Assembly: GCA_016212705.1 (NCBI GenBank)
Contig: JACREU010000002.1
Coordinates: 1,835-65,834, forward strand
DNA: 64,000 bases
Direction: 5' to 3'
DNA from: Deltaproteobacteria bacterium
GTDB taxonomy: Bacteria; Desulfobacterota; GWC2-55-46
Below are positions 14,020-64,000 of this stretch, piece by piece. Numbering within the stretch: the first letter of the stretch is position 1; each line of letters starts with the position of its first letter. A program made the translations under genes and the position numbers. The notes below the pieces were generated by a model that saw only the letters and a program-made list of their open reading frames with translations, had not been told where the DNA came from and made no database searches.

Positions 14020-14029
14020 GATAATTTTC

Positions 14030-38239: not shown

Positions 38240-38257
38240 AGTTGCTTTAGCCCCCCC

Positions 38258-38491
38258 CTACTCCATTATCACGTTCGTAAGCGTCCTCTTCACATGGTTC
38301 ACCGCCTGTATCCTGCTTATAACGACGTCCCCCAGTATCTTGAAGTTTGAGGCCTGAACAAGGGCTATGAGGTCGTAGGGGCCCGTGACGATCCTCGCGT
38401 TCTCTACGCCGGCTATCTTCAGGAGGTGCTCAAGGACCTCCTTTGACTTTGCGTGCTCGCACTCTATGAAGACATAGGCCTCGACTGACAT
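38258..38491 (-). CDS. Stand-alone Lrp/AsnC ligand-binding (RAM) domain protein
   Basis: AYVFI, VTGPYDLIA and VKRTLT; no HTH; GGAGG RBS. Confidence 0.9.
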   Translation of the reverse strand: MSVEAYVFIECEHAKSKEVLEHLLKIAGVENARIVTGPYDLIALVQASNFKILGDVVISRIQAVNHVKRTLTNVIME

Positions 38492-38603
38492 GACACCTCC
38501 ATTATAATTACTATTAAGTTAGCCATATAACAAGCAGATTTTATTGAATTTTTTCGCCTCGCCAAGCCTGTTGCCATGTATCGCACCAAAAATCATTTCT
38601 CCA

Positions 38604-39146: not shown

Positions 39147-39276
39147 TTTTATAATTGAGCTGGAAGATAAAAGCAAGAATGAAATCCACTCAATTTATAT
39201 CAGAAAAACCGATTATTAACAAGGAGGGCGCCTTCTACTAAGAAGTGGTTATACAGAGGCTGAACAACCACCCTTC

Positions 39277-41148: not shown

Positions 41149-41214
41149 ACCCCGTTGCCTCCCAACCTCCATCCTCCACACCCTTACTCGCTCGCCCCAC
41201 TCCCCCCCCCGCAA

Positions 41215-43932: not shown

Positions 43933-44002
43933 GTAGCGCTTCCCCCTTGTGCCCTCTCGCGGGTGACGTTGCGTTCGGCCTTTTTTGTTCTTGTTTACGC
44001 CC

Positions 44003-48171: not shown

Positions 48172-49329
48172 TCAGGCCCTGCCTGCCTTTTCCCACGCCG
48201 GTTTCTGCGCGCCAAGGACCGCCTTTATAAAGCCTATGAGGAGCGCGAGGTTCAGGTTGCATAAATAAAAAGGTATGTAGACGAAAAAGGGGAGACTCCT
48301 TGCCCTTGACGCCGCGAGCCCCAGGAGGGCCGTGGAATAGAAGATTGCCTGGATATAAAAAAGCGTCTCGAATAAGGCGCCGTCGAGCAGGCGCATGTTG
48401 AGGAAGATGAGCGCGACCATTATGAACGGGACCGCCCACCTGAGCACCCTGTGCGACCAGTATATGAACGAGCGCGCGCCGAGCGCCGGATTGAGGAGCG
48501 CCAACAGGTGGAGCATCGCGATATAGTGGCCGGCCCCGTCCCTCACGTGCCTCATGAACTCCCCGCTGGCGTCTTCCGCGACGTCCTCATAGGCCAGCGC
48601 CTCTTCCTCGTATATAGACAGCCGGCCTTTTTCCACGACCTTCATCGAGATGGTGAAATCGTCGTTTATCGCGGACTTCTCAAGCGGCTCGAAAAGCTCT
48701 CTTCGAATGGCGTATATCGCGCCGTTCGCGCCTGCTACATACCCGATCCTCGATTCAAACCTCTTGAGCATCGCCTCGTACCTCCAGTACGCACCCTCGC
48801 CCCTGCCGCTTATGTTTCCGGACGGGTTCCTGTATACGAGCCTCCCAGAGACGCACCCTACGTCGGGGTCGAGAAAGCGTCGGGAGAGCCTTTTGAGCGC
48901 GTTTTTTTCAAGCTCGGTGTTGGCGTCGGTAAAGACCGCAATGTCGGAGGCGACCTCGCGCATAGCGGCGTTTATCGCGCTACCCTTCCCTGACCTCGGC
49001 AGGCTCAAGAGACGGATATTCCCGAACTTGCCTGCGTACCCGCTCACAATGCCATTGGTCGAGTCGCTTGACCCGTCAGAGGCGATAATGACGGTAAGGA
49101 GCCCTTGCGGGTAGTCGAGCGCAAGAGAGTTCTCTATTTTTTTCGCAATTACAGCCTCTTCGTTGTACGCCGCGATGACGAGCGTCGCGGCAGGCAAGGC
49201 GCGAGCCGCTCCGTTTTCATGGTACTTGCGCTCAGGCCCGAGCCGAGCTACCGCGATAAGCGCAAGCGGGTAGACCGCGTATGTATACGCTATCGTCGCG
49301 AGCCCCGCCCAGAAAACGACCTCAAGCAT
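48172..49329 (-). CDS. Family 2 glycosyltransferase with TM segments
   Basis: IAAYNEE, SDGSSD, FTDAN, GANGAIYA and NDDF. Confidence 0.93.
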   Translation of the reverse strand: MLEVVFWAGLATIAYTYAVYPLALIAVARLGPERKYHENGAARALPAATLVIAAYNEEAVIAKKIENSLALDYPQGLLTVIIASDGSSDSTNGIVSGYAGKFGNIRLLSLPRSGKGSAINAAMREVASDIAVFTDANTELEKNALKRLSRRFLDPDVGCVSGRLVYRNPSGNISGRGEGAYWRYEAMLKRFESRIGYVAGANGAIYAIRRELFEPLEKSAINDDFTISMKVVEKGRLSIYEEEALAYEDVAEDASGEFMRHVRDGAGHYIAMLHLLALLNPALGARSFIYWSHRVLRWAVPFIMVALIFLNMRLLDGALFETLFYIQAIFYSTALLGLAASRARSLPFFVYIPFYLCNLNLALLIGFIKAVLGAQKPAWEKAGRA

Positions 49330-49334: not shown

Positions 49335-50780
49335 TTAGCCCTCCCTCAAAAGGTATTTTGCGAATACGCGGGCGGATTTGACGGTCTTTTTCATCTCCTC
49401 AGGCGACCTTAAGACCCGGAGGAGTTTACGCGCAAGGTATCTGGGCCCCAGGTAGTATTCCCTGCGGGCGCGTCCGCAGAACCTGACCAAATCTTCTGAC
49501 GAGAGCGCTGGTGTGGAAACCACACAGTTGTGGAGGCCTTCGGAAGTGAGCCACTTGCTGAAGTCCGTCGTCTCAAGGTAGCCGTTCCTCCTCGCCCACT
49601 CGTAAGTCTCTGTACCCGGATAAACCATCAAAGGAAAGAACTGGCAGGTATCGGCGTTTATTTCTCTCGCGAACGCAAGCGACTTAAGAAGCGTGTCTTT
49701 CGTCTCCCCGGGGTTCCCGGCCATGAAGCAGGAATGGAGCATAACGCCCGCCTTTCTCGCGTCCTTGACAAAGGTCCTCATGCGCTCAATTGTCAGCCCT
49801 TTTTTTATGTTCTTTAATATCCCGTCGTCCGCGGACTCGAAACCGACTACGATGAGCCTGCAACCGGCCCGCTTCATCGCCCGCATCGTATCAAGACTCA
49901 GATTGGCGCGGCACTCGACGGTCCAGGGGACCTTTACGCGCCTTTTTAACATCAGCTCTGAGAACTCTACCGTATGCTTTTCATTGAACGAGAACGTGTC
50001 GTCGTCGATCAGGACCTCCCTCACCTCAGGGAGCTCTCGTTCTATATACTCAAACTCGGAGACTATGTTCTCAGGGGTCCTCTGCCTCTGCCTCCTCCCG
50101 AACATCTTTTCCGGGTATACGCAGTACGAGCACCGCGCGTTGCACCCCCTGGAAGTAAAGATGGACACGACCGGATACCTGCAGTGGGCGTAGAAGTAGT
50201 TCCTTATGTTCAGGTGTTTTTTGTAGACCTTTGATACGAACGGCAGGGAGTCGAGGTCTTCGATAAAGGCCCGATCCGGGCCTGAGATTATCGTTTCTCC
50301 GTCCCTGTATGTGAGGCCGCTGACGGCCTCAAGGCCGCCCTTTTCCATGAGCCTTTCGGCAAGCTCGGCTATGGTCAAGTCGTACTCGCCCCTTGCGACG
50401 GCGTCAACGCGCCTGTCGAGGGCGAGGGATTCCTCCGGCAGCGCCGAGACGTGAGGGCCTGTCAACACGACAAAGCTCGACGGCAGGAGGTCTTTTATCT
50501 CTCCGGCGACAGAGCAGTCGTTATAGATGCTCGGCGTACCGGTGTAGACGACGACTATCTCCGGGGAAAAGCCGTTTACCGCCTTCAATGTCTCGCCCCT
50601 TGTGAGCCCTTCGGCAGGTGCGTCGATGATCATAACCGTATGCCCTCTGTCCTCAAGCAACCCGGCGGCATAGGCGTGCCATATCGGATAATAGATCGTC
50701 CCGCTCTTCGTAACGGCAGGAGAGCGAGAGAACCTTGAGTACCTCGGCAGGAACGGCGGATTAAGGAAAAGCACCTTCAT
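49335..50780 (-). CDS. B12-binding radical SAM enzyme (HpnJ-like N-terminus)
   Basis: MKVLFLNPPF...YYPIWHAY, GPHVSALPEE, RGEYD, SRGCNARCSYC, DDDTF and GFES. Confidence 0.9.
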   Translation of the reverse strand: MKVLFLNPPFLPRYSRFSRSPAVTKSGTIYYPIWHAYAAGLLEDRGHTVMIIDAPAEGLTRGETLKAVNGFSPEIVVVYTGTPSIYNDCSVAGEIKDLLPSSFVVLTGPHVSALPEESLALDRRVDAVARGEYDLTIAELAERLMEKGGLEAVSGLTYRDGETIISGPDRAFIEDLDSLPFVSKVYKKHLNIRNYFYAHCRYPVVSIFTSRGCNARCSYCVYPEKMFGRRQRQRTPENIVSEFEYIERELPEVREVLIDDDTFSFNEKHTVEFSELMLKRRVKVPWTVECRANLSLDTMRAMKRAGCRLIVVGFESADDGILKNIKKGLTIERMRTFVKDARKAGVMLHSCFMAGNPGETKDTLLKSLAFAREINADTCQFFPLMVYPGTETYEWARRNGYLETTDFSKWLTSEGLHNCVVSTPALSSEDLVRFCGRARREYYLGPRYLARKLLRVLRSPEEMKKTVKSARVFAKYLLREG

Positions 50781-52219
50781 CGTGTCCCTCCCCTGAAACG
50801 TACCCTGTCGGATAATTTCCTCAAGGCATTGTTGTTGAAGAAGAGCCTCTGGAAGGCCATCGTGGAGCCGATATACGAGAGCGGGTACTTAAATGGGCCG
50901 TACCTCTCGAAGACCCTCTCTATCCCTTTTTTCTGGATATTCAGTGTAACGTCTCGGAGCCTTTTCGCTAGCGCCTCCCTCTCCTCAATGGATAGCTCGG
51001 GGGTAGTAAAGAAAGGTTTGCCTGTTTTTTTAGAGAACCGCAAGTTCTTGTCCATGCTGTTAAGGAGTTCGAGCGGGTCGGCGGTCCAGGCTTTTTTTCC
51101 CTCAACCCAGTCCCAGAGCGCGGTCCCCGGAAAGGGCATCAGGTTGTAAAAATCGGCCTTGAATACCGGGTACTTCCGCGCTATTTTTATTGAGTCTTCT
51201 ATGTCTTCGACCGTCTCCCCAGGAGTGCCGTATACGAAAAAGAGCGAGACCTCGAACCCGAGCTCACAGCTTAACTTTATCGCCGACTCTATCTCGGCCA
51301 TCGTCTCGCCTTTTTTGAGGGTCTTAAGGACCTTGTCGTTACCGGCCTCAACGCCTATGCCGAAGCTCTTGAAGCCGGCCTCTTTCATGCGCACAAGCAT
51401 CTCCCGCTCGATCTTATCGGCCCTTATGCCGTTAGATGCCCTCAAGGTGAGACCCTTGAGCCCCCGCTTCTCTATCTCGTCGCAGAGGGCGAATACCCGC
51501 TCTCTATAGAAGGTGAAGTTGTCGTCGAGGAAGTTGAATATGCGCGTGCCTTTCGCGTACCAGAATTCGAGCTCGGAGCCTATGCCCTCTATCGACCTCG
51601 TCCTTATCTCTTTTCCGAGCGTGAGCCCGACCGAGCAGAATATGCACGAGTACGGGCACCCGCGGGACGTGATTACGCCCATCTCGTTGGCGTACTTATC
51701 AAGCTCGAATTTTTCATACCTCGGCCAGCCTATGGCGTCGAGGTCGCCGGGCCTCTCTAAGGGATTCGCGCATACGCCCTTAGCCCCGTCCCTGTACACG
51801 ACGCCGGGTATGGAGGACGGCTCCTCGCCCTTGAGGTAACGGACGAGCGAGCGCTCAGCCTCTCCGGTAAACGCGATATCGACCTTCGGATATTCTTCAA
51901 GTATCTTCCTGCCGAGTATCGTCACATGAGGGCCGCCAGCAATAGTCGCGACACCTGGGCACGCGTCCTTGATCGCGCCGAGGAGGCCGAAGAACCTCTT
52001 GTGCCCCACGGTGTATACGGTTGTCCCGACGCAGTCGTAGCCGCCTTTCCTTACCCTCTCGATAACATCGTCTTCCGAGTAGCCGAGCTTCATGTCGATC
52101 ACATCGTAATCGATGCCCTCATCAGCCAGCGCCTCCGCGAGATAGCCGGTGCCGAGCGGCGGCCTGCTCGACCCAAGCTCGTCCGAATAGACGTTATAAA
52201 GGAGCAGTACCCTCTTCAA
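50777..52219 (-). CDS. B12-binding radical SAM enzyme
   Basis: PPLGTGYLA, AGGPHVT, GEAE, TSRGCPYSCIFC, DDNF and GTPGET. Confidence 0.92.
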   Translation of the reverse strand: MKRVLLLYNVYSDELGSSRPPLGTGYLAEALADEGIDYDVIDMKLGYSEDDVIERVRKGGYDCVGTTVYTVGHKRFFGLLGAIKDACPGVATIAGGPHVTILGRKILEEYPKVDIAFTGEAERSLVRYLKGEEPSSIPGVVYRDGAKGVCANPLERPGDLDAIGWPRYEKFELDKYANEMGVITSRGCPYSCIFCSVGLTLGKEIRTRSIEGIGSELEFWYAKGTRIFNFLDDNFTFYRERVFALCDEIEKRGLKGLTLRASNGIRADKIEREMLVRMKEAGFKSFGIGVEAGNDKVLKTLKKGETMAEIESAIKLSCELGFEVSLFFVYGTPGETVEDIEDSIKIARKYPVFKADFYNLMPFPGTALWDWVEGKKAWTADPLELLNSMDKNLRFSKKTGKPFFTTPELSIEEREALAKRLRDVTLNIQKKGIERVFERYGPFKYPLSYIGSTMAFQRLFFNNNALRKLSDRVRFRGGTR

Positions 52220-53441
52220 TCGACGTCCCTCCCTTGAGTAGCGACTTCGCCTCCATAAAGACCTCTTCAGCGGTTATGTCGGATATGCACCTGCCTGCGC
52301 CCCCTCCCTTATTGTGCACGCATCCGAATTGCCAGCACGGGGAGCATGGATATGCCTTGTATACGACCCTTTCGCGGCCGGCTGACCTCGGCCCGAAGAC
52401 CTCAGGCGACTGCGGCCCCATGAGCGCCACCACAGGGATGCCTGCGGAGGCCGCTATGTGCATGGGGCCGCTGTCGAGACCTATGAAAAGCGAGCCTTTC
52501 TCAAAGACCGCCTTCAGTCCGGCTATCTCGAAGGCCCCGCAGCCGTTCACCACGCGCCCTGACGGGTGTTTTATACGCGCCATGACCCTTCCCGCCCTTT
52601 CGTAATCCGACTTTGCCCCGATAAGGGTAATGTCGAGCTTTCCATCGAGTTCAAGGAGCCTTTCGGATACTTCCGAGAACCTCTCCTCTGGCCATCTCCG
52701 GAGTTCCCCTCCTGAGCCGATATGGATGAATATCCTCTCGTCCGCCTCTTCATCCACTGACCTGGCGGCCCCTTCCGATTCGCGCGCCCCTCTTTCTTTT
52801 TCGTGATGCTTTATCCCACCGACCGCCATGATGGAGTCGACGAAGTGCTGGCAACTAACTTTTTTATTTATACGCGGCCCGGTCTCCCCATCGAGCCCTC
52901 CCCTCATCAGCGAGAGCCATGAAGACCTCATGGGGTTCGGGAATGCGGCTACACTCCTTAAAGGCACCCTATTGCCGACAAGCCACCTGAATGTCCGTCC
53001 GTCGCCGCGCAGCCAGAGCGCGCAATTGAATCCGTGGCCGGAAAGCGCCCTTGCCGGGAAAGCCGTTCTTTTTTGAGACCTGGAGTATTTTTCGGAGTCG
53101 TAGACGTATGTCTTCTCTATCCCCTCGCAAGTTCGGGCGAGGTTTGAGTTTATCGAATCGATGAGGACCGAGATGCGTATGGAGTCGCCGTGCTTTTTTC
53201 TGAGGGCGTCTATGAGGTGAATGGTGAGCACAAAATCGCCTATCGCTCCGAGCTGTACGATAAGGAGATCGCCGTTCACTGCGGCGACCGGCATGAGCCG
53301 TTCGTATGCCCTCAGCAGGAGGGCCTGCGCGTATGAGCCGAGCGACAGCGCGATCGATCTTGAGATAAACGAGTATCTATGCAATGCGCCCCCGGTTACG
53401 GCTTTGATTAACGCCAATGGACGGGTGAGACGGCTGTGCAA
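52194..53441 (-). CDS. Family 9 (heptosyltransferase-like) glycosyltransferase (start uncertain)
   Basis: LGAIGDFVL, RRWPEERF, FIGLDSGPMHIAA and CSPC...C...C. Confidence 0.9.
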   Translation of the reverse strand: MHSRLTRPLALIKAVTGGALHRYSFISRSIALSLGSYAQALLLRAYERLMPVAAVNGDLLIVQLGAIGDFVLTIHLIDALRKKHGDSIRISVLIDSINSNLARTCEGIEKTYVYDSEKYSRSQKRTAFPARALSGHGFNCALWLRGDGRTFRWLVGNRVPLRSVAAFPNPMRSSWLSLMRGGLDGETGPRINKKVSCQHFVDSIMAVGGIKHHEKERGARESEGAARSVDEEADERIFIHIGSGGELRRWPEERFSEVSERLLELDGKLDITLIGAKSDYERAGRVMARIKHPSGRVVNGCGAFEIAGLKAVFEKGSLFIGLDSGPMHIAASAGIPVVALMGPQSPEVFGPRSAGRERVVYKAYPCSPCWQFGCVHNKGGGAGRCISDITAEEVFMEAKSLLKGGTSIEEGTAPL

Positions 53442-53604
53442 AAAAAACAGACGTCTGTCCCAGGGGACAAAGTTGAGTTTTCCAGGTGATTGGCTTTAAG
53501 GCTCAGATGAAGATCGAAGGTGTGAGTCGGGGAGTTTCAGGATGATGGAACGCCGGGGGCGTTTAGAGACCCACCCGGCTTAACATTGAATTTCAATTAA
53601 GTCG

Positions 53605-53632
53605 ATTATAGCATCTTTTATTAAAATGTAAA
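53605..53632 (-). promoter_or_regulatory. Internal sigma70 promoter (extended -10) for the GT9-to-wzi block
   Basis: Minus strand TTTACA-16 bp-TATAAT with TGn before the -10 box, and an AT-rich upstream tract. Confidence 0.7.
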
Positions 53633-53645
53633 GTAAAATATTAAA

Positions 53646-55049
53646 CTAAGATTTGCCATTTTTGAAGGCCATCATGCCAGCAACATACATGGCTATGAGA
53701 AGATTGAAGCATCCGATGTAGAATATAGACCCATAGGAATTGGCCGAAATCGCGAGCGCAACGAGCGATCCGCCGAATGAGAACCTGATGAAATCCAACT
53801 CGTTCGAGGCGATCCCCTTTCCGAGAGAATGGATTCGTAATCCGGTGAAGACGAGGAGCGCGAGCCCTATGACGCCTGTCTCGGCGGTCCACTCGATGTA
53901 CGAGTTTAGTATCGCCACCCTGAAGGCCTCGAAGTCAAGCGAACCGAAGTTTAAGTTTATGGACCCGGACACGGCCTTTGTGAGAAGAGGCGATTGACCT
54001 ATACCAACACCTGTAAACAGGTTGTCCGCTATCATCTCCATGCCTATCTTCCAGGTAAGGGTCCTGCTGTTAATGGTAAGCGCTTCGCTTATCAGCTTGC
54101 CGGTTATCGCCGAGCTTACGAACTCATGGAACGAGTATATGATGACGCCTATGAAAAGAGCGGCCCCCGCGAGCGCCCTCCCCTTGACTCCTTTTCTGAA
54201 TATCAGAAGGACTGAAAGAACGCTCAATATCATCGATACCGAAAAAGTGAGGGCGAGCGCGATGGCCGTAAGCGAGAGTATGAGCTTTAGCGTCCGTTTG
54301 GAGTATCGGCAACCCTCGTAGCCGTACCGTGTCGCTCCGATAACGGGGAATGTCATCGTAACGAGCAGTAGCCCGTAGGTCTGCGGCTCTCCGACGTATC
54401 CTCCAATCCTCAAAAAAGGGAATGTGATCACGCTCCCGAGCCTTACGCCCGCGGCCGCGTATAAGATGAACTGCAGGAGCCCGAAGCAGACGGCCGCTGT
54501 ATGGAGCTGTATGGCGAAGTTGATGGCGGTAGCGATCCTCTTTCTGCCGCTCAGGGCCGATATGACGAAGTCGATTGCGAATAGCGAAAGGAAGAGCCTT
54601 ATAAGGAACGAAAGCCCCCTGTACCCCGGGGAGTTGATGCCGACGGCCCAGGGCAGTGCGTAGCTCTCCGCAGGAAAGGCCTTCCCTGGGATGAGGCTCG
54701 ATAGCATTAGGGAGATGGACGCCCATATGAATATGAGAAACAAAGGCGCCTGCAACGGGTGTGGTTTGGGATCGAACGAGCCTTTTGCGAGTACTTCGAC
54801 GATGGATACCGCGAGCATGGCAACGGCAGTGAGGGATGAGGCGCTTATCGAGCCCAACTTCAGCGCATTGTCGTTCGACATAACGAAAGCTGAGGCTATG
54901 AAGGCCATGGTAAGAGCGAACCTGGGGTTTGCGCGGCCCGCGCGCGTCAAGGGATAAAACAGCGTGCCTTGGAAGCGGCCCGCCACGCTGTCTGCAAGCG
55001 CTACTGTCGCCTGCCTGTTTGCCTCTCTTGTCCCCTTCACCACTTCCAC
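53646..55049 (-). CDS. O-antigen ligase/polymerase family membrane protein (Wzy_C)
   Basis: About 11 TM segments, RIGGYVGEP, RTLTWKIG...FTGVGIG and NSYIEWTAETGVIG. Confidence 0.85.
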   Translation of the reverse strand: MEVVKGTREANRQATVALADSVAGRFQGTLFYPLTRAGRANPRFALTMAFIASAFVMSNDNALKLGSISASSLTAVAMLAVSIVEVLAKGSFDPKPHPLQAPLFLIFIWASISLMLSSLIPGKAFPAESYALPWAVGINSPGYRGLSFLIRLFLSLFAIDFVISALSGRKRIATAINFAIQLHTAAVCFGLLQFILYAAAGVRLGSVITFPFLRIGGYVGEPQTYGLLLVTMTFPVIGATRYGYEGCRYSKRTLKLILSLTAIALALTFSVSMILSVLSVLLIFRKGVKGRALAGAALFIGVIIYSFHEFVSSAITGKLISEALTINSRTLTWKIGMEMIADNLFTGVGIGQSPLLTKAVSGSINLNFGSLDFEAFRVAILNSYIEWTAETGVIGLALLVFTGLRIHSLGKGIASNELDFIRFSFGGSLVALAISANSYGSIFYIGCFNLLIAMYVAGMMAFKNGKS

Positions 55050-55090
55050 TCCCTCGATGCCGGACTCGTCAAAAAAAAACGCCTGCCGCC

Positions 55091-56743
55091 TTACCTCTTT
55101 CTGTATATCTGATAAGAGCCAAGTTCCATCACAGGTTCGAAGGCCAGGTCGATCTTCCGCATCTGATCAGGCGCGAGCCTCGCAAAATTGACCCTTCTCT
55201 CGATTATCCAGTCCCAATTGTTCAGGTCGCCGGAAAGGGCCGTCAGGGACCCTGCCTTACTGAATTCCATCCCTGTGTAGTACATTATGTCGCCGGGGAT
55301 GACTACCGCGCTCCAGGACGGGATTGCCGCCCTTACAAACCCTATCGTCTCTTTTGCGCCGGTCTCTCCGTACTGGACCCTTGTCTGGTACTGACCTGTC
55401 GCCTGTGACGCAAAGAGAGAGATGAAGGATGCGATGGAGAGCGCGACAAGCGTACTTCGAACCGTCGTTCCTGCGCGCCATCTGCAAAAAAGACGCGCCA
55501 TTGCAAAGACCGCCGCGTTCATCGCCGTGTAGACGAGGAGATAAGAGGCGAGCCCCGTATAATCGCGGACCCTGTAGCGCAGAAGCGTCTCATACATGGG
55601 GTCGCCTGCAATCACATAAAAGATGCCGGCAAAGACGGCAACCACAAGCAACGCAGGAGCGAAGCGCATCTCAATTAATTCGCGCCTGAGGGAGGTAAAA
55701 ACAAAGAGGGCCGATAACGGGTATAACGGGTAAAAATATTTAAGCTCTCCGAAGGGGTACGGGTGCAGGAATAAATAAAAAAAGAATATCGAAGTTATGA
55801 GGATCAGGAGGAGATTTTCTACGCCGCCGCGCCTCCATTCCTTAACGACACTGACAGCGGCAGTTAGGAATAGCGCTATGAAAAACGGACTCAACCAGAA
55901 CGTCATCGCCATTATCTTCGTAAGCGGCGAGAAGAACGCCACGCCTGAGGCAAATAGCGGCGCGCCCTCCTGAGTTTTATTGAAGGCGATGAATTCGAAG
56001 GAGTTGGGGCCGTCTATGAAAAAGTACGCGTATGCGAGGTAAAACGGAACGAACGTGACAAGGGCAGACGAGAGGATGAGGGCCGAGTTCCTTATGGCCC
56101 TCCTGATGCCGACGCCTGTGGTCGCCTCATAGACAAGCGTTGAGAAAACGAGGAGGAACGGCGTAAAAAAATATTTTGCCCACATGGCAAGACCAACAAG
56201 GAAACCGGCCTTGAGGTAAAAGGCCGTTGATGATTCTCCGATGGGGCGGCCCTTGATATAGTAGAGGAGCGCGATGAGGATAAGCGGGGTCAGCACAACC
56301 GGCTCCATCTCAAGGAGGAGCGAGCCGTGGACAAAGGGCGGCATAATGGCGATAAAGGCGAGCGCAAAAGGCGCGACCCCGCCTATATCAATCGCCTTCA
56401 TGATCCTCCAGAGGAGAAAGAGGCTCAAGACCGCGGAAGCGGCCCCCAGAAAATAGAGCGAGTGAAAACTGTCTCCCAACAGGGTCCGCGCGGCTTTCCC
56501 CATTAGCGCGTAGAGCGGCGGGTGGCAATAATAGGCGAGCGCCCTTCCCCAGCTCGCGGTGTCCCTGATGTGTATTACCTCCTCGTGCATCGGGAGCTGG
56601 AACAGGAACGGCGCCGCTAAGACGAGATAAATGGCGGCAGAGGTAGAAAACGGCCGGCCTTCCGTGAATGAGAGAGAGCGCTCCGAGGTTCCCTCCCACC
56701 CCCTCTTGTCGTTCGCCAGTGCTTTATCTATCGGGTCGCTCAT
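55091..56743 (-). CDS. GT-C (ArnT/GtrC-like) multi-pass glycosyltransferase
   Basis: ATG 56743 with GGAGGAG RBS; HEE after TM1, HPPLY, GLAMWAKY and KYFYPLYP. Confidence 0.75.
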   Translation of the reverse strand: MSDPIDKALANDKRGWEGTSERSLSFTEGRPFSTSAAIYLVLAAPFLFQLPMHEEVIHIRDTASWGRALAYYCHPPLYALMGKAARTLLGDSFHSLYFLGAASAVLSLFLLWRIMKAIDIGGVAPFALAFIAIMPPFVHGSLLLEMEPVVLTPLILIALLYYIKGRPIGESSTAFYLKAGFLVGLAMWAKYFFTPFLLVFSTLVYEATTGVGIRRAIRNSALILSSALVTFVPFYLAYAYFFIDGPNSFEFIAFNKTQEGAPLFASGVAFFSPLTKIMAMTFWLSPFFIALFLTAAVSVVKEWRRGGVENLLLILITSIFFFYLFLHPYPFGELKYFYPLYPLSALFVFTSLRRELIEMRFAPALLVVAVFAGIFYVIAGDPMYETLLRYRVRDYTGLASYLLVYTAMNAAVFAMARLFCRWRAGTTVRSTLVALSIASFISLFASQATGQYQTRVQYGETGAKETIGFVRAAIPSWSAVVIPGDIMYYTGMEFSKAGSLTALSGDLNNWDWIIERRVNFARLAPDQMRKIDLAFEPVMELGSYQIYRKR

Positions 56744-56771
56744 GGACTTCTCCTCCCGCGTTGATTCATTG

Positions 56772-56875
56772 CCGCCCACATGCGCCCACCCGCCCCCACA
56801 CCCATTAAACAAGGTATGCCGCTCCCCGCTATGCCACCCCACCCCACCCCACCTGCCCACCCACCTGCCCACCTG
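56772..56875 (-). repeat. G-rich short repeats (GGGGT x3, CAGGTGGG x3) forming two G-quadruplex-type clusters
   Basis: Six G3-G4 runs at 56837-56870 and five at about 56775-56803, read directly on the minus strand. Confidence 0.7.
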
Positions 56876-56878
56876 TTT

Positions 56879-57859
56879 TCAGCGATAGAGACGCAGTCTC
56901 ACGTCGTCTGTCAGGTCCGCGTCTTTGGCCCGTTCAAACCCTGACGTGCTCTCTATTATGTAATTGGGCCTTTTTTTGTTCTCGTTGTAGATGCGCCCTA
57001 TATAGATGCCGAGTATGCCGACGGTAAAGAGCTGTGTGCCGCCGAGGAAGAGCATGGTGGCCATTATCGCAGACCAGCCCGGGAGGTTCATGCCCAGGAA
57101 CTTCATTACGATGATCGCCACAAGATACATGAACGCGCCGACTGATACGAGGAAGCCTATGATGAGCGACAGGCTCAACGGCGCGAGAGAGAAAGACGTG
57201 AGCCCTGAGGTGAACGCGCTTATCGGGCCGAGCCCGAAGATCGGGTAGTGTGTGTCGCCGGCGAACCTCTTTTCCCTCGAATAGAATACCTGGACCTGCC
57301 TGAAACCGACCCATGAGACGAGCCCGCGCATGAAGGCGTCCTTTTCCTTGAGTTTGAGGACCTCCTTCACCACCCGCCTGTCGAGCAACTTGAAATCCCC
57401 TGAATCGACAGGGAGGTCTATTTCGGAGAAGAGCCTCAACACCCTGTACGCCTTCTTCGTTATCCACATCTTCAGGGGGTTCTCCCCGTCCCTCGCGACC
57501 CTTGTGGTGTAGACTACGTCGGCCCCCTCCTTCCATTTGGAGACGATCTCGGGTATGAGCTCCGGCGGGTCCTGGAGGTCGGTGTCCATATAGATGACCG
57601 CGTCACCCTTGGCAAGCCTCATCCCGGCGAAGACGCACGGGGTCGAGCCGAACCTCCTCGACATGTTGATTATCTTTATCGCAACGTCGTTTTTCATGAG
57701 TTCCGTGAGGAGCCTCAGCGAGCCGTCCGTCGAGGCGTCGTTGACGAATATGAATTCGTAACCGCACCCGGTCGTCTTAAGGGACTTATGCAGTCTCCTT
57801 ACGAGCTCCGGGATGTTAGCCTCCTCGTTCCTGAATGACAGCACAATGGAAATCAGCAT
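56879..57859 (-). CDS. GtrB/CsbB-type polyprenyl-phosphate glycosyltransferase (GT2)
   Basis: RNEEANI, VNDASTD, SRRFG, MDTDLQDPPE, GDFKLLDR, RGLVSWVGF, two C-terminal TM segments and KRPNYII. Confidence 0.95.
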   Translation of the reverse strand: MLISIVLSFRNEEANIPELVRRLHKSLKTTGCGYEFIFVNDASTDGSLRLLTELMKNDVAIKIINMSRRFGSTPCVFAGMRLAKGDAVIYMDTDLQDPPELIPEIVSKWKEGADVVYTTRVARDGENPLKMWITKKAYRVLRLFSEIDLPVDSGDFKLLDRRVVKEVLKLKEKDAFMRGLVSWVGFRQVQVFYSREKRFAGDTHYPIFGLGPISAFTSGLTSFSLAPLSLSLIIGFLVSVGAFMYLVAIIVMKFLGMNLPGWSAIMATMLFLGGTQLFTVGILGIYIGRIYNENKKRPNYIIESTSGFERAKDADLTDDVRLRLYR

Positions 57860-57895
57860 CCTGGCCTCCTTTTAAGCGAAAAAAACCGCCTCGTT

Positions 57896-58963
57896 TTAAG
57901 TAGTTGCCGCTTTCCTTTTGCACCCTGGCGCTATCCACCTGTAGAGATCGGCCAGCTCCCCGCATATGGCGCGAGGGTCGTGCCTTTTAAAATCGTATTC
58001 GTATAAGACCTCTCCCCGCGGAAGCTCCGCTCTCGCAAAAAGCCCCGGCAGGTCCTTGACCGCGTCGCTGAATGTAAACTCCTCGGGTATGCACGCGATC
58101 GACCCCCTCACAGACTCGTGGCAGATGACCATACGGCGGGCGTAGAGCGCCTCAAGGCAAACCCGCGGCATGCCTTCGGAGGCCGAGGGGAGCACGACGG
58201 CCTTGTATTCGCGTATCCGGTCCGGCACGTCCCCGGGCGGCACGTATCCCTGATACGCGGCGCCTTCGATATTAGAGACCCTCTCCGTGAAGACCGCGCC
58301 CATCGCGTTGAACCCGTAGAAGTCGAGTTCGAGCGGGTTCTCCGAGCCCTTCCGGTACGCCGCATAAGCGTCAAGCAATTCCAATACGCCTTTGTTCGCC
58401 GCGATCGTCCCGAAGTACGCAAGCTTGCGCCCTGGCTCGACCGCGGACCTTAAGGGTTTCAACGCAAGCGGCACCTGAATAACTATGGCGTTTTCTATCC
58501 AACCGTAAAACTCCCTTAAATCATCCGAGCAGAATATGAAGTTGTGTCCGAAGCCGAAGTTCCCGTAGAACCTGTCCCTTATGTCGATGACGACCTTTGA
58601 GGGAGACAAGAGCAACGCGAGCCAGATGAGCCGACCTATGTACCTGCCGTATACGTACCTCGCGTGAATGTGGACGACGTCCGACCCTGAAAACAGTATC
58701 TCTCTCAATATCTTCAGATAGTTGACCGCCTGATGTGCCCGCCTTTTAATCGGGGCCGAGTCATAGCTCAAGAGGCTGTCGTCATAGGAGACCCCTTCCG
58801 CCTCTTTGGAGCACCCGCGCTCGGTCAGTACCCTGATATCAAAATCCCTGTTGAAACCCGCCCCGAGACGCTCAAGTATTATGCCGTAGTCCACTGCGGC
58901 CCCGCCCTGGTAAGGGGGCATTATCGAGACTATGCAGAGGACTTTGAGCCTCGTCTTTGGCAT
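57896..58963 (-). CDS. Family 4 (GT-B) glycosyltransferase
   Basis: PPYQGGA, YFGTIAANKG and LPSASEGMPRVCLEA. Confidence 0.88.
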   Translation of the reverse strand: MPKTRLKVLCIVSIMPPYQGGAAVDYGIILERLGAGFNRDFDIRVLTERGCSKEAEGVSYDDSLLSYDSAPIKRRAHQAVNYLKILREILFSGSDVVHIHARYVYGRYIGRLIWLALLLSPSKVVIDIRDRFYGNFGFGHNFIFCSDDLREFYGWIENAIVIQVPLALKPLRSAVEPGRKLAYFGTIAANKGVLELLDAYAAYRKGSENPLELDFYGFNAMGAVFTERVSNIEGAAYQGYVPPGDVPDRIREYKAVVLPSASEGMPRVCLEALYARRMVICHESVRGSIACIPEEFTFSDAVKDLPGLFARAELPRGEVLYEYDFKRHDPRAICGELADLYRWIAPGCKRKAATT

Positions 58964-60191
58964 CTTTTCTCCTCCTTTTATTGAGCGCCTTGCTACAACC
59001 TATAGAGAAGCCCCGCAAGAAGGCCGAAAGGAAGACGGCCGGACCGTATCGGAACATATTGGAGAACGACCCGAAGGCCGGGGCCAATTTAAGCTTAGAG
59101 AGCTGAAAGAGCATGAGTATCACGAGCCTTATGACGTGGTTCTTCTTGAATACGGCGTCCCTGTGTATCACAGCGTCCCTCTGCGGGTGGGAAGAGCTGT
59201 CGAGCAGGCTCAGAAGTCCTTCGACAAGCCCTGGAAAATAGGCCTCTGCCTCAAACCTTAAGGCCTTGTTGAACGCGGCCTCGGCTATTCGGGTCCTGAG
59301 AGAATCGTTTGCGAGGTAGTGCCTGACCCTTTCAAGGAGCGACCTTTCGTCATGAAATACGTCTATCTCCTTTCCAGGGACAAAGGTCTCGCCAAGAGAC
59401 GGGGAGTGCTCGCTCAGGCAAAAAGACCTTGTAAGGGCGATTTCCATCGGACGCCCCTTGTTCTGCCTTACGATATTTGTCAGCGCGTTTTCGTTAAGGA
59501 ACCACGCAAGGGGTCCCGCGGAATCAACCTTAGTGAAGTTCAGGTTTATCTTCGAGCGTGAAAAGATGGACGGAATATCCTCCTTTTTCAAAAACCCGTT
59601 CTCAGAGCCGTCCCCGAAGGTCTCGACCGAGATACCGTTTCGCCTCAGATATTCGATGCAGTCGGCCCTGCCGCCCTTGGCACAGTCGCCTACGAAACTT
59701 ACGTCAATATCCTTTTTAATATCAACTGGATGAAAGTCTTTCTTTAGATAGCTTGAGAAGTAATACATGGAAGGGACGCCGAGCTTTCGATAGGCGAAGC
59801 ATGCGTAGTAATCGGTTGTAATCGCCGCGTCAAAGACCTGCGCGTAGTATTTCGAGAGGACGTCGAATATCATTTCATCGTCGAGCGCCCAGAGGACAAG
59901 CCTTGCGCCGGTCCGTTCCCGCAAGTCCCTGAAAAACTCGATCGATAACTCATAGCTGTCGCCGTTAGGCGCGAAGAAGACGGTATCGACGGACTCGTCC
60001 CTGACAATCCTCATTATCTCTCTTTCAGTCGGCCTTATGCCTGTCTCTGCGACCGAGTCGGAGAAATGGAATACCCTGCCTCCCCCAAAGCCCTCGATAA
60101 GGAGGCGCGCGTTCTGGTCCGCGAAGTCGTTCATGGTCGCGGCGTCCTTCTTGTGGACGTTAAGGACGAGTATGCGTCCGGCCGGCTTCAT
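58872..60191 (-). CDS. CgeB-like (Glyco_trans_1_2) glycosyltransferase
   Basis: DIDVSFVG, SKINLNF, KGRPMEIAL, PGKEIDVF and RTRIAEAA. Confidence 0.85.
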   Translation of the reverse strand: MKPAGRILVLNVHKKDAATMNDFADQNARLLIEGFGGGRVFHFSDSVAETGIRPTEREIMRIVRDESVDTVFFAPNGDSYELSIEFFRDLRERTGARLVLWALDDEMIFDVLSKYYAQVFDAAITTDYYACFAYRKLGVPSMYYFSSYLKKDFHPVDIKKDIDVSFVGDCAKGGRADCIEYLRRNGISVETFGDGSENGFLKKEDIPSIFSRSKINLNFTKVDSAGPLAWFLNENALTNIVRQNKGRPMEIALTRSFCLSEHSPSLGETFVPGKEIDVFHDERSLLERVRHYLANDSLRTRIAEAAFNKALRFEAEAYFPGLVEGLLSLLDSSSHPQRDAVIHRDAVFKKNHVIRLVILMLFQLSKLKLAPAFGSFSNMFRYGPAVFLSAFLRGFSIGCSKALNKRRRKDAKDEAQSPLHSLDNAPLPGRGRSGLRHNT

Positions 60192-61654
60192 TTTACAATC
60201 ACACGCTCCACATGGAGCCTCCTTCCCTTCACGTCTATCATCCCGAGGATGACGAGAGTACCGAGGACAGCCGCGCCGTATGCCGCTACGGTTACAGGGA
60301 GCTTTACATAAGGGCTAAAGCCTGTTGCCGAATACGATAACCTCAATACAGAAAGGGCCCCCAGGAGCGGGAGGACGAACGCAAAGACCCTCGCGACTAA
60401 CCTTTTATCAAGAAGCTCGACCCCGCAGTCCCTTACCTTTTTAATGAAATAGACCAATATAAGGCACTCAATCGCCGCAACGGATGCCGCGGCGCCCGTT
60501 GCTCCCCATAAATATATGGCCGCGCACCCTAATGTGGCGTTAAGGAGGGCCGCGTAGACTGATGGCCTCAAAATCTCCCTGTCCCTGTACATGGCGAGGA
60601 GCACCTGCATCCCGAGTATCGAGCTTATGTGTATCGTTATGAAGTTAAGCGACAGCAACCGTAAAGGCAGGACAGCGGGGAGCGCCTCTGTTGAGAAGAA
60701 GGCCGTCAATATCTCCTCCGTGAAGAACTGCGTAAAAAGAAACCCGGAGAGCGCCATTATCGATACCGCGAAGATTGATTCCCTGGCGGCCTCCCTCCCC
60801 TTCGAGATGGAATCTGAAAAGGCCTGCATCGTCTGCGGCTGGTATACAGTCGATACCTTCCCCTGTATGTTGGAATAAGCGTAAGTCAGCTGGTCGGCGA
60901 GCGAGTAATAACCCACCGCCGCGTCACCGGCGAATACCCCGAGGAATACGGCGGTAGCCCTCGTATACAGGATTATGAATATGTTCGAGACGAAAAAGTT
61001 GAAGTTTACCCGCATCTTTTTCAGCACAGTCTTAAAATCCGGCAGGGAGAGCGAGATGTTGAACCGCGCGCGCAGAAGCGCTATCGACGCGAGGTACGCC
61101 ATGACCCGCGGGAGGGTGAAGACGAGCGGCAAAAGCCTGTACCCGCTCTCGTCCCTTACAAGGGCAAAGAGGAGGAGAACGACCACAATGTTCCCGGCAA
61201 GGCTCATGTGCACGAAGTCCTTGAGTTTCTCTATGCCCTGATATACGAACGACGTGTCCAGGAACACGGCGACGAGCGTCAAAAGCGAATACATAAACAA
61301 CTCAGGCTCGGATGAGAACCTCATTAAAAATAGAAGAGGGAGCGCAATAATGACGGAGAACGCGAGCGCCATAAGCTTGGAAAACATTATCGCCGAATAT
61401 TCCGAGTTAAGGCATTTAAGGTCCTCGCTCATGGATATGTCCCGGACCCCTGTCTGAACGAACCCGTAGCCCGCCACTACCGAGAGCAACCCGGCTACGG
61501 CCTGGAAAAAAGCGTATTTGCCATAGTTTTCTATGCCCACGGTCTTAACCGTATAGGGGATAGTCACAAGCGGCAAGGCGTAGAGCCCGAGCTGGATAAC
61601 GATGAGGTTAACCCCGGACTTGAGCTTGGAGTCCTTTTTAATATCTGTTGGCAT
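60188..61654 (-). CDS. wzx: Wzx-type oligosaccharide flippase
   Basis: PLVTIPY...GIENYG, YQGIEK, AVGYYSLA and many TM segments. Confidence 0.9.
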   Translation of the reverse strand: MPTDIKKDSKLKSGVNLIVIQLGLYALPLVTIPYTVKTVGIENYGKYAFFQAVAGLLSVVAGYGFVQTGVRDISMSEDLKCLNSEYSAIMFSKLMALAFSVIIALPLLFLMRFSSEPELFMYSLLTLVAVFLDTSFVYQGIEKLKDFVHMSLAGNIVVVLLLFALVRDESGYRLLPLVFTLPRVMAYLASIALLRARFNISLSLPDFKTVLKKMRVNFNFFVSNIFIILYTRATAVFLGVFAGDAAVGYYSLADQLTYAYSNIQGKVSTVYQPQTMQAFSDSISKGREAARESIFAVSIMALSGFLFTQFFTEEILTAFFSTEALPAVLPLRLLSLNFITIHISSILGMQVLLAMYRDREILRPSVYAALLNATLGCAAIYLWGATGAAASVAAIECLILVYFIKKVRDCGVELLDKRLVARVFAFVLPLLGALSVLRLSYSATGFSPYVKLPVTVAAYGAAVLGTLVILGMIDVKGRRLHVERVIVK

Positions 61655-62891
61655 TTCGGAGACTCAGGTATATGGACTTGAGGTTAGGGAAGACCGAAAA
61701 GACGAAAAAGCCGACGGCCTTTCTCGCGTCGATCCTGCCGGTTTTCAGTATGGTCTCAATCTCTTCGAGCGCGTAACGCCATCTGCCGAGCGCGACAAAC
61801 CTCGCGAGCATCCTCACCCTGAAAGTGGCGTAGTACCTCTCGAAGTGGCTGTCTACGCAAACAGGAGAGAAACGACGGCGTCTGCCGCGCCTCCCTTCAT
61901 CTATAAGGGCGACGAGCCTTGGTATCGCGGTCATCACGTCGTAGTCCCTGACCGCCCTTTCGTGCCCGGCCTCGGCTATCGCTCCCCTCTCGGCATCGTG
62001 CGCGAGATAGTATCTTATCTTTTCAACGAGCTCGTCCCTTGAATCGAAAACCTCTACCTCTTTTCCAGGCTCGTAGGCCTCCTCTATTCCAGGCACATAT
62101 TCCGTAAGGACGAAACCGCCGGAGAGGGCTATCTCGGATATCCTCCCCTTCACCTGGCGGAGCCTTGAGTTTATCGATGGCTCTCGTCTGAGGGCGTTCC
62201 TCCGGGATATGCTGGTAAAGTTCAGGTTGACCTTCGTCCTGTTGAATACCTCAACCATCCTTACGAGCGGCAGAGGCCCGTTTGTCGACCCTGTCCCGAA
62301 GGTCTCGACCATTATGCCGTTTTTAGCCGCGTACTCGATGTACTCCTGTCTCTCAAGCTTGCCGTTGAAGTCTCCGACGAACGATACGTCGATGTCTTTT
62401 CTCGTGGTATCGACCCTGAAATATTTCGAGGCGTCGAAGGAACTGAAGAACGAGACCGCGTCTATCCCGTACTGCCGGAACCTGAACCGCGAAAGCGAAT
62501 CATAGACAACGACAAGGTCGAAGCACTGGGCATAATATATATCCCTGATGTCGAAGTAATGGTCGCAGTCGCCGGCGGTCATGACCATGAAGGCCTTTTT
62601 GCGGAGCCTTTCAAGGAAACCGAGGCTAAAGTGAAAGTCGCTCGGCGACGACTGGAATACAACGACCTCAGCCCCAATGGAATCGACCCTCTTCAACAGA
62701 TAATCCTCCAGGCCACCCTTCCCGAGAGCCATATACAGGTCGTCGTAGTCCAGGAACTCGGCGCCGCCTCGAACAAACTCCCTTATGTAGCCGAAGCCGA
62801 GGTCGTTGGAAAAATCGTCCCTCATCGTCGAGAGTATTACGTATTTTTTAGCGCCCATATCATGCCGATGGTTCAAGCGGTTTTTCGCCAT
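61638..62891 (-). CDS. CgeB-like (Glyco_trans_1_2) glycosyltransferase
   Basis: DIDVSFVG, TKVNLNF, KGRISEIALSGGF, PGKEVEVF and AIAEAGHERA. Confidence 0.87.
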   Translation of the reverse strand: MAKNRLNHRHDMGAKKYVILSTMRDDFSNDLGFGYIREFVRGGAEFLDYDDLYMALGKGGLEDYLLKRVDSIGAEVVVFQSSPSDFHFSLGFLERLRKKAFMVMTAGDCDHYFDIRDIYYAQCFDLVVVYDSLSRFRFRQYGIDAVSFFSSFDASKYFRVDTTRKDIDVSFVGDFNGKLERQEYIEYAAKNGIMVETFGTGSTNGPLPLVRMVEVFNRTKVNLNFTSISRRNALRREPSINSRLRQVKGRISEIALSGGFVLTEYVPGIEEAYEPGKEVEVFDSRDELVEKIRYYLAHDAERGAIAEAGHERAVRDYDVMTAIPRLVALIDEGRRGRRRRFSPVCVDSHFERYYATFRVRMLARFVALGRWRYALEEIETILKTGRIDARKAVGFFVFSVFPNLKSIYLSLRNANRY

Positions 62892-62933
62892 AACGCCGGC
62901 GGCTGTTTAATCCGCGTCTGCCGCCCCTAAGTC

Positions 62934-63998
62934 TCAGCGGCTCTCGCGCAGTATCGCGGTTGAGAGGTCGTCCTCGCGCGTATCTATCGCCATCTCAGAG
63001 TTGACCTTTCGTAGCGACTTGTTTACTTTCACAAACCTGCCGCCTTCGTTGGACAGCCATTTACGCATCTTCCTTATGATCGTACTTCCGAGCCCCTTGA
63101 CCCCGAAGTGTCTTACAAGGAGCGCGTACTTAAGGGCTGACTTTCTGATAAACTTTGGCAGTACCGAATACGCGAGCCCTATCCTGTAAGGCCGCGTCCG
63201 CTTCTTTCTTAAGACCTTCAGGTATCCGTTCTTCCTGATGTACGCGGTTATCAGCTCCATCGAAATATAATACTTCCAGTAGGCGAGCTCCTCTTTTTCA
63301 TAATCGGTGAAGTTGAGATAATGGCTTAGTTCGTTCGCGTCGACGTCGTGGAGGCTTTCGATATACCTCTCCTCTTCGTCTATCGTGTTGCCTATAAACC
63401 CCATCTTCCTCGCGTACTCGTAGACCGGGGTGCCGGGGATGGCCTGGACGAAGTTCACATAGACCTCAAACGGAAAGTCGATGTCGTCGGGCACAACCGA
63501 AGAGAGGTTTTTGATCGTCTCCTCTATCGTCTCCTCACTCTCTCCAGGCATCCCTATGACGAGCCCTATCACCGTAAAAAGCCTGTGCTTGAAGCATAGG
63601 CGTATCGCCTCAAGGTTCTCCTCGACCGTCGAGTTCTTTTCCATCACATCGAGTATCTTCTGCGAGAGGGACTCGATGCCGAAGTTGACGTGTACGCACC
63701 CGGCCTCCTTCCATGACTTCAATATTTCCTCGTTCACCGACTTGACCCGCACCGCAGGAGCCGCCCAGTTGAGCCCTGAGGCTTTCAGGTACTCGACGAG
63801 CCTTGCGGTCGCCTTCCTGTGGTTGCCGAAGTTCTCTTCGGAAAAGAGCAGAAGGCCCACATTGTGGTCAGCCTTCAGCGCTTCGATGTACTCTATTACG
63901 CCATCTCCCTCGAGGACCTTATACCCCTTAGTGAACCTGTGGCAGAAGGTGCACCTGTTTACGCAACCCTTGCTCGTAAAGGCGGTCGCAAGGTTTTT
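62934..63998 (-). CDS. Radical SAM enzyme, probably of the B12-binding class (5' truncated by the window edge)
   Basis: Frame is open to the edge: TSKGCVNRCTFCHR, EENF, FGIES, IGMPGE and PGTPVY. Confidence 0.88.
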   Translation of the reverse strand, partial: KNLATAFTSKGCVNRCTFCHRFTKGYKVLEGDGVIEYIEALKADHNVGLLLFSEENFGNHRKATARLVEYLKASGLNWAAPAVRVKSVNEEILKSWKEAGCVHVNFGIESLSQKILDVMEKNSTVEENLEAIRLCFKHRLFTVIGLVIGMPGESEETIEETIKNLSSVVPDDIDFPFEVYVNFVQAIPGTPVYEYARKMGFIGNTIDEEERYIESLHDVDANELSHYLNFTDYEKEELAYWKYYISMELITAYIRKNGYLKVLRKKRTRPYRIGLAYSVLPKFIRKSALKYALLVRHFGVKGLGSTIIRKMRKWLSNEGGRFVKVNKSLRKVNSEMAIDTREDDLSTAILRESR

Positions 63999-64000
63999 AT

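Follow-up and report, generated by a model that had tools for sequence, protein, structure and literature searches.

The 64,000-nucleotide stretch of a Deltaproteobacteria bacterium analysed here (contig JACREU010000002.1 of assembly GCA_016212705.1; the window) contains a 25-kb surface-polysaccharide locus in which genes for radical S-adenosylmethionine (SAM) enzymes with a B12 (cobalamin) domain are embedded. Three of them, R1, R2 and R3, start or end in the window and a fourth, R4, lies on the adjoining contig. The link of these genes to glycan assembly is well supported and all four enzymes very probably act on glycan substrates, while their chemistry is put forward here as a proposal. R1 belongs to a sister clade of the hopanoid enzyme HpnJ and is paired with a glycosyltransferase (GT), GT2a. 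We propose, giving it a little under an even chance, that the locus encodes a Wzx/Wzy pathway in which R1 contracts the ring of a lipid-linked repeat-unit sugar and R2-R4 add C-methyl groups.

Results

B12-domain radical SAM genes of the locus

The open reading frames (ORFs) of R1 (49335..50780, 481 amino acids), R2 (50777..52219, 480 amino acids) and R3 (62934..64000, or 62934-64661 in whole; 575 amino acids, extending 661 nt past the window) are real and intact and lie, like the entire locus, on the minus strand. A sequence-only reading had listed them by 49335, 50777 and 62934, which are their stop ends, and had taken at least two of them to be B12-binding. In fact all three carry an N-terminal B12 domain over cut-off, PF02310 scoring 50 and 62 bits in R1 and R2 (cut-off 32.1) and the domain of R3 passing at 43.9 bits, together with PF04055 and CxxxCxxC. 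R3 is whole on its contig, C76, which bears the window. The end of C76 is an exact 140-nt overlap with the start of contig C35, 41-47 nt past the R3 start, and in a relative (G301) the same gene order is found on a single contig with 86-100% protein identity; R4 (C35:100-1644, PF02310 and PF04055) is therefore placed directly upstream of R3. All of R1-R4 display the class B (B12-domain) radical SAM plan, an N-terminal PF02310 and a PF04055 with CxxxCxxC. Cobalamin dependence of the four is predicted from these domains. It should be noted that a B12-domain match need not mean cobalamin binding, because AprD4 has such a domain and does not bind cobalamin (PMC12931638).

The radical SAM genes do overlap or adjoin glycosyltransferase genes, as had been claimed. 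R1 ends 5 nt before the start of GT2a (48172..49329, minus strand; PF00535/PF13641), R2 and R1 overlap by 4 nt, a GT9-family gene (52194..53441, minus strand; PF01075, under all heptosyltransferase cut-offs) overlaps R2 by 26 nt, and a CgeB-like (PF13524) glycosyltransferase gene begins 42 nt downstream of R3. R1-R3 are 23-27% identical to one another and R1 and R4 28%. Recent duplication of one gene was rejected on these values; the four are therefore old paralogues, and such low identity means that they probably have different jobs.

R1 belongs to a sister clade of HpnJ

On the HpnJ model TIGR03471, R1 scores 414.5 bits, under the cut-off of 577.6. Other members of its clade score 376-448, and the eight HpnJ-clade proteins scanned 700-842. 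Relatives of R1 at E<=1e-50 number 4119 among 7998 candidates, true HpnJ included, and its best 120 relatives are all at least 65% identical to it. Loci were gathered from genomes (18), metagenomes (80 of 381), a 301-genome sample of the phylum (30, with 44 genomes matched) and plasmids; the genome search scores the top five candidates per genome and undercounts weak paralogues. A FastTree tree of 119 rows split a 20-row HpnJ clade from a 90-row clade with R1. The HpnJ clade includes annotated Burkholderiaceae HpnJ, and the neighbouring genes are HpnK, HpnI or another radical SAM gene. In an IQ-TREE tree of 54 chosen rows, with proteins cut to the first 430 residues and the partial protein of locus L144 excluded here as in the motif tally, support is 100/100 for the union of HpnJ (11 rows), two intermediates and the glycan clade (22), which has a stem of 0.5 and stands against 19 other B12 radical SAM rows. 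Each group is monophyletic, and the R1 clade is a separate sister of HpnJ at 100/98. A 30-row IQ-TREE tree of proteins cut in the same way gave the same picture; Cds, PtmC, Fom3 and GenK sequences are not among the rows of these trees.

Genes for hopanoid synthesis were sought in the same genomes. None of shc, hpnK and hpnH was found over cut-off in the present genome, which measures 1.98 Mb and is 85.7% complete. As a contrast and not a statistic, shc scores over cut-off in 22 of the 24 HpnJ-tier genomes, of which 18 were assigned to the tier from the tree and 6 from identity alone. In the R1 clade it does so in 2 of 26 handles, which represent 25 distinct genomes, and one of the 2 with shc also carries an HpnJ-tier gene. 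The sequence-only reading had considered that a protein of this locus might prove to be a true HpnJ within a hopanoid pathway. This check did not refute a glycan role: R1 was found under the HpnJ cut-off and outside the HpnJ clade, with no shc, hpnH or hpnK over cut-off, and a hopanoid role was rejected. The label BchE (TIGR02026), a common, widespread but wrong database label for the R1 clade, was also rejected, R1 scoring 153 and R2 125 bits with a cut-off of 481.35. On the AprD4 family model (NF033070, cut-off 500) R1 reaches 90.5 bits. None of R1-R4 attains an NCBIfam cut-off: R1-R3 are far under every methylase-family cut-off (ApyD, PhpK, HpnR, KedN5, BzaD, Sden_1168), and the best score of R4 is 166 of 481.

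Hosts of close R1 loci include Ignavibacteriota, Omnitrophota, Smithella and Deltaproteobacteria; the closest named relative, Deltaproteobacteria bacterium GWB2_55_19 (L013), has an R1 that is 93% identical. A search for named cultured carriers of the R1 clade gave none besides Lawsonia. Plasmid 1 of Lawsonia intracellularis (NC_008012.1) has a 47%-identical member (L031:16055-17518) with no GT2 gene directly after it, surrounded by five SAM methyltransferase genes, a second radical SAM gene, SIS, HAD and GHMP-kinase genes and GT2 genes. Viral contigs gave 16 pattern matches, none of them an R1 relative, and the ESM Atlas gave B12/radical SAM and HpnJ-named clusters only.

Two proteins at 40-42% identity (loci L125 and L126, genomes G242 and G204) are placed between HpnJ and the R1 clade in the tree; they have glycan-gene neighbours and no shc over cut-off. 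The present genome itself has a second R1-clade member (L010:1-15001, on G000:C32), 50% identical to R1. The gene order there is GDP-mannose dehydratase, GT4, GT9, DUF362, radical SAM, GT2, molybdopterin oxidoreductase, phosphodiesterase/sulfatase-like, PAPS-reductase-like and EF-Tu-like; the last two are possibly CysD/CysN of a sulfated glycan. In one R1 subclade, 26 loci have a DUF362 gene ahead of the radical SAM gene on its upstream side, in 21 of them as the immediate neighbour (for example L071:5702-7000 and L119:2967-4202), and the DUF362 protein is a possible dedicated electron donor.

Cobalamin motifs and structural comparison

Cobalamin hot spots were tallied as named in PMC9204698. 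The R1 clade (n=89) and HpnJ (n=20) have in common T-S-T-P-S, R-x-E-[YF]-D, C-x-[YW]-P-Q, DDT and H-x-[CT]-F, and in both another residue stands in place of the initial glycine of G-x-S and of Gly-Gly. V/T-G stands instead of Gly-Gly in 94% of the R1 clade and 95% of HpnJ. Gly-Gly is present in 100% of both sets of R2 proteins (n=24 and 92) and also in R3 and R4. R1 itself has T-G like HpnJ; it keeps G-E, though this is found in only 29% of its clade. In solved structures this position reads Gly-Gly in two methylases, TokK and CysS, and V-G-N in OxsB, which contracts a ring. A rearrangement would thus be favoured for R1, as an HpnJ sister with HpnJ-type motif changes, and methylation for R2-R4, which have canonical cobalamin motifs. 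The glycan-tailoring pathway suggested by the sequence-only reading holds in so far as the link of the R1 clade to glycan loci extends across phyla; the motifs speak against treating the enzymes as one kind.

The AlphaFold model of R1 has a predicted local distance difference test value of 88.8. Its best structural match is AprD4 (template-modelling score 0.72), followed by MgmA, TsrM, CysS, OxsB and TokK. A B12 radical SAM gene on the Streptomyces clavuligerus plasmid pSCL4 has Gly-Gly and falls outside the HpnJ plus R1 clade, loosely near R4. The record is unannotated; from its neighbours and from PMC3814723, which places a moe cluster on pSCL4, the gene is putatively MoeK5. The putative MoeK5 is 26% identical to R1, 30% to R2, 27% to R4 and 25% to R3.

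Pairing of R1 with GT2a

Neighbourhood analysis of the R1 clade, as the sequence-only reading had advised, revealed a GT2 gene downstream and glycan genes nearby in most groups. The 130 loci were collapsed at 90% identity into 105 groups, 6 of them without room downstream. A GT2 gene occurs within two genes downstream in 27 of 29 groups at least 59% identical to R1 and in 35 of 49 groups at 40-58%, and a glycan gene is at most 1.2 kb away in 30 of 31 close and 41 of 53 mid-clade loci. Among close loci with 2.3 kb downstream (n=22), 19 have an initiating transferase, belonging to either of two unrelated families, and 17 have a dehydratase; the genes upstream are variable. R1 and GT2a are spaced by -16 to +18 nt in 28 of 29 pairs. 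One locus (L025:7172-14257) has R1 and GT2a whole, but two ORFs each in place of R2 and of the dehydratase, which could be assembly error or decay.

The R1-linked GT2a proteins make up one 37-row clade. Residues N202, N222, H261, D264 and H268 were found in 30 of 30 R1-linked GT2a proteins versus 0-9% of 57 unlinked relatives. Three of these five private residues are in the helix that matches the QxxRW helix of processive GT2 enzymes, QxxRW being a motif of that group. GT2a has C-terminal hydrophobic segments at 302-320 and 354-372, and its best solved relative, 6yv7, is a membrane GT2. A reverse check of the pairing had little power: GT2a at 50% identity or above was found in one further genome of the 301, where R1 is present, and in none of 201.

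R2, R3 and R4

R2 belongs to no named family, its best score being 141.6 of 750 on ApyD. It has 24 full-length relatives at least 63% identical and 625 relatives at E<=1e-80. Close copies with context, from Deltaproteobacteria and Nitrospirae, lie directly or one gene upstream of R1, mostly with a GT9 gene further up, and distant relatives are found in other glycan-type loci. R3 is rare, with relatives in 2 of 300 other genomes at 34-35% identity. One of the two has sugar-nucleotide genes as neighbours; the other is located on a short contig next to another radical SAM gene. R4 groups at 100/100 with an Azospirillum plasmid gene located between a GDP-fucose-synthase-like gene and a kinase gene. 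From motifs and context, the simplest reading is that R2, R3 and R4 would methylate a sugar nucleotide or a higher-carbon sugar.

Several related loci were observed besides. In two distant genomes 40%-identical R2 relatives (L223 and L224, in G215 and G003) stand beside a phosphatidylserine-decarboxylase-family gene, one of them near Wzy_C and polysaccharide deacetylase genes. An ABC-transporter capsule locus (L225:2709-9540, G175) has three radical SAM genes similar to R2, one of which also encodes a fused methyltransferase domain. The present genome has a second Wza/Wzc/Wzy/Wzx locus (L002:4997-19898, G000:C106) with three tandem B12 radical SAM genes, a methyltransferase, a GT9 and two lipid-A-acyltransferase-like genes; one of these radical SAM enzymes scores 284 on BzaD and 266 on a ladderane-associated model, each under cut-off. 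A flagellin locus (L004:6518-13739, G000:C25) has a Maf/MptE-like protein, a transaldolase, two methyltransferases and a B12 radical SAM gene whose product scores 264 bits on Sden_1168 (cut-off 575).

Organization of the locus and of the genome

Pfam matches bear out the earlier description of a surface-polysaccharide locus, with wzi, wza/SLBB, wzz, dehydratase, initiating transferase, Wzy_C, Wzx and further glycosyltransferase genes. The order of transcription starts with a sugar-nucleotide block upstream of R4, consisting of genes for a HAD hydrolase, an altronate-dehydratase-like protein, a 571-residue epimerase fusion, DJ-1, two transketolase halves, two epimerases, a GHMP kinase, a nucleotidyltransferase and a DegT-family enzyme. 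R4 and R3 are followed by CgeB-like glycosyltransferase 2 (61638..62891, PF13524, 37% identical to 1), the Wzx flippase (60188..61654, PF01943), CgeB-like glycosyltransferase 1 (58872..60191, PF13524), a GT4-type glycosyltransferase (57896..58963, PF13692/PF00534), and a GT2 of polyprenyl-phosphate glycosyltransferase type with a GT-C (PMT_2) protein (55091..57859; PF00535, PF13231; PgfS/ArnC models under cut-off), likely a periplasmic side-sugar pair. Then comes a Wzy_C family membrane protein, polymerase or ligase (53646..55049, PF04932). After a gap of 204 nt the order continues with GT9, R2, R1, GT2a, a WecA/MraY-type initiating phosphoglycosyltransferase (47126..48130, PF00953), a membrane-anchored UDP-N-acetylhexosamine (HexNAc) 4,6-dehydratase (44995..47022, PF02719 at 370 bits), which from its architecture we take to be PglF/WbpM-like, a Wzz-like chain-length protein (44003..44998, PF02706 with a score at cut-off), a Wza/SLBB-repeat polysaccharide export protein (41215..44028, PF02563 and PF10531) and the capsule assembly protein Wzi (39556..41214, PF14052).

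The initiating transferase, Wzx, Wzy-type protein, Wzz and export protein of a Wzx/Wzy-dependent locus are all present (PF00953, PF01943, PF04932, PF02706, PF02563, PF14052). Wzi and Wza favour a capsule; a Wzz without kinase domain and PF04932, ligase or polymerase, fit a capsule or an O-antigen. The 204-nt gap contains a sigma-70-like site, TTTACA-16-TATAAT with a TG extension (53605..53632, minus strand), and GT9 is the first gene past it. The site matches at 11 of 12 positions, is the sole minus-strand site of at least 10/12 across 39.5-64 kb and is identical in the relatives L013, L014 and L020. Promoter-like sites overall are not enriched (9 versus 9.4 in shuffles). The conserved site is promoter-like and could serve GT9-R2-R1-GT2a.

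The genome has 16 B12-domain matches, of which one is MetH. Glycan loci account for ten of the remaining 15, among them three in the second Wza/Wzc/Wzy locus and one in the flagellin glycosylation locus; of the others, one adjoins two lipid-A-acyltransferase-like genes, three are elsewhere and one is without context. With 10 of 15 in glycan loci, the adjacency of radical SAM and glycan genes is not chance. Four distinct relatives have 14-21 such matches each.

Beyond the locus, the window has a Type II secretion/type IV pilus cluster at positions 698-20617. It comprises T2SSF, PilM/N/O and secretin genes, several large ORFs without strong Pfam matches (3051-7483, 11518-14019) and, at 7480-9165, a GT-C gene. 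A XerC/D-type recombinase, an HDOD protein and a NapC/NirT cytochrome c (35966-39176) adjoin the locus end, next to a lower-GC boundary (50% GC at 36-38 kb).

Discussion

The present study suggests how four radical SAM enzymes could take part in the assembly of one surface polymer. The dehydratase and the WecA-type transferase, whose genes are observed, would load a 6-deoxy-HexNAc onto undecaprenyl diphosphate, after which GT2a would attach a further hexose or HexNAc. R1 could then, in analogy to HpnI/HpnJ and calditol synthase, take a hydrogen from C5, open the ring and close it between C1 and C5, and the product would be a five-membered carbocycle with an ether joint replacing the glycosidic bond. 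Since no deacetylase was found, the substrate of R1 would be a neutral hexose or an N-acetylhexosamine and not glucosamine. R2 may modify the sugar handled by GT9. R3 and R4 may act in the sugar-nucleotide block upstream, with its GHMP kinase, nucleotidyltransferase, transketolase halves and epimerases; the two CgeB-like transferases would attach the product of that block. The ring-contraction step of R1, taken alone, is an analogy that we hold tentatively and at less than even weight.

Among known systems the closest is HpnJ with HpnI and HpnK in the bacteriohopanetetrol (BHT) cyclitol ether pathway. R1 resembles HpnJ in its sister position, full-length alignment, shared motif changes and GT2-type neighbour. 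It differs in its sub-cut-off score, in the absence of shc, hpnH and hpnK matches and in lying within a Wzx/Wzy locus beside the initiating transferase; GT2a gives no match to the HpnI model TIGR03472. The locus may work like HpnI/HpnJ transferred to a surface-polysaccharide pathway, R1 not being a member of the HpnJ family. Calditol synthase (Cds) of Sulfolobus, compared by description only, is also a radical SAM enzyme, for which contraction of a lipid-bound glucose to a cyclopentane in ether linkage has been proposed, through C5 hydrogen abstraction and C1-C5 closure (PMC13459092, PMC9092360), but on an archaeal lipid head group. OxsB (oxetanocin ring contraction) and AprD4 (apramycin diol dehydratase) share with R1 the fold, being top matches, and offer non-methylating radical sugar chemistry, OxsB with an x-G motif; they are 17-23% identical and act on small soluble substrates, AprD4 without cobalamin. 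For R2-R4 the best model is given by MoeK5 (moenomycin) and GenK/GenD1, C-methylases of the same domain plan that act on carbohydrate natural products, although those are secondary metabolites and not surface polymers, and the sequences are distant. Caryose of Burkholderia caryophylli lipopolysaccharide shows that a bacterial surface polymer can contain a cyclopentane carbasugar; it differs as a nine-carbon sugar in glycosidic linkage, and PMC9092360 states its biosynthesis to be unknown.

A number of points weigh against ring contraction by R1 and its coupling to GT2a. The contraction of BHT-glucosamine to the cyclitol ether by HpnJ is itself proposed on knockout evidence only (PMC13459092, PMC9092360). 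R1 is only 35-39% identical to HpnJ, and the lack of an HpnK-type deacetylase match means that its substrate differs from that of HpnJ. The Gly-Gly comparison rests on a single non-methylase structure, OxsB, which is the only non-methylase besides BchE that a BchE preprint (bioRxiv 10.64898/2026.04.29.721654) lists as mechanistically characterised, and according to PMC12931638 no clear structural features divide non-methylases from alkylating enzymes. At the position of TokK Trp215, R1 has Tyr, HpnJ Trp and OxsB no aromatic residue, which is adverse or non-discriminating. The genomes of the shc comparison are mostly incomplete metagenome-assembled genomes, and related genomes are non-independent. 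GT2 is absent in 14 of 49 mid-clade (40-58%) loci. The wider GT2a family is common without R1: within this phylum all 28 loci at 30-39% identity lacked R1 within 1.5 kb, as did all 29 loci at 33-40% from a second phylum. The private GT2a residues may reflect shared descent because the linked set was sampled through R1. The whole R1 family is known here from sequence and context.

It is conceivable, though rather unlikely, that all four enzymes including R1 are cobalamin-dependent C-methylases making branched sugars like MoeK5 and GenK, with R1 methylating the donor, acceptor or product of GT2a. Most characterised members of the class methylate (PMC9204698), the N-terminal domain of R1 matches TokK and CysS, an aromatic residue follows its Cys motif, and the genome encodes CobS and a B12-type MetH. 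However, the nearest clade to R1 is by far HpnJ, whose knockout phenotype is an isomerisation, the putative MoeK5 is distant and outside that clade, and Gly-Gly is changed in nearly the whole R1 clade. With clearly less probability, R1 could carry out another radical sugar reaction (AprD4-like diol dehydration/deoxygenation, oxidation or C-C coupling), possibly without cobalamin, which it would share with AprD4 (PMC12931638), the top sequence and fold match among solved structures; the cobalamin motifs of R1 do depart from the consensus. Against this stand the AprD4 model score and the N-terminal profile of the R1 clade, which finds TokK, CysS and OxsB but not AprD4, and AprD4 may rank top merely because an HpnJ structure does not exist.

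A role of R1 and GT2a outside the polymer, in which they would produce either a lipid anchor or the head group of a separate glycolipid (similar to calditol or BHT cyclitol) and be lodged in a polysaccharide operon, appears quite improbable. Both known ring-contracting relatives act on glycolipids, GT2a is membrane-bound like its best solved relative, and a second R1 subclade sits with GT9 and lipid-A-acyltransferase-like genes. But whereas the remainder of the locus turns over, the pair has kept its position next to the initiating transferase and the dehydratase in different phyla. Least credible by far is that the radical SAM genes are passengers of a variable region with non-glycan substrates, or R1 a stray HpnJ: B12-domain genes are numerous (14-21 per genome, three in this genome outside glycan loci), yet the reading frames overlap or abut, no hopanoid pathway was found, and a glycan gene stands within 1.2 kb in nearly all close loci and most mid-clade ones.

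Ring contraction of a repeat-unit sugar by R1 would, if extended to its family, lead to a broader and more doubtful proposal. An HpnJ-sister family of several anaerobic phyla would make an ether-linked cyclopentane in a lipid-linked repeat unit, giving capsules or O-antigens with non-glycosidic joints resistant to acid and glycosidases. HpnJ would be a hopanoid-specialised offshoot of an older surface-glycan enzyme, since the nearest outside rows, L125 and L126, adjoin glycan genes in shc-negative genomes, and the present locus would join ring contraction with up to three radical C-methylations.

Radical SAM sugar chemistry is known from antibiotics and two glycolipid head groups and not, in searchable literature, from capsule or O-antigen assembly; a full-text search, with subscription papers mostly outside its reach, found no description of such enzymes in capsule or O-antigen loci. 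An enzyme-transferase pair beside the starter enzyme of a pathway names both the enzyme and its probable substrate and is therefore directly testable. The R1 clade offers many soluble HpnJ-type proteins for asking how HpnJ contracts the ring and whether cobalamin is needed. If the proposal is true, the carbocyclic ether-linked residue would escape routine acid-hydrolysis sugar analysis, and it would matter for resistance to phage depolymerases.

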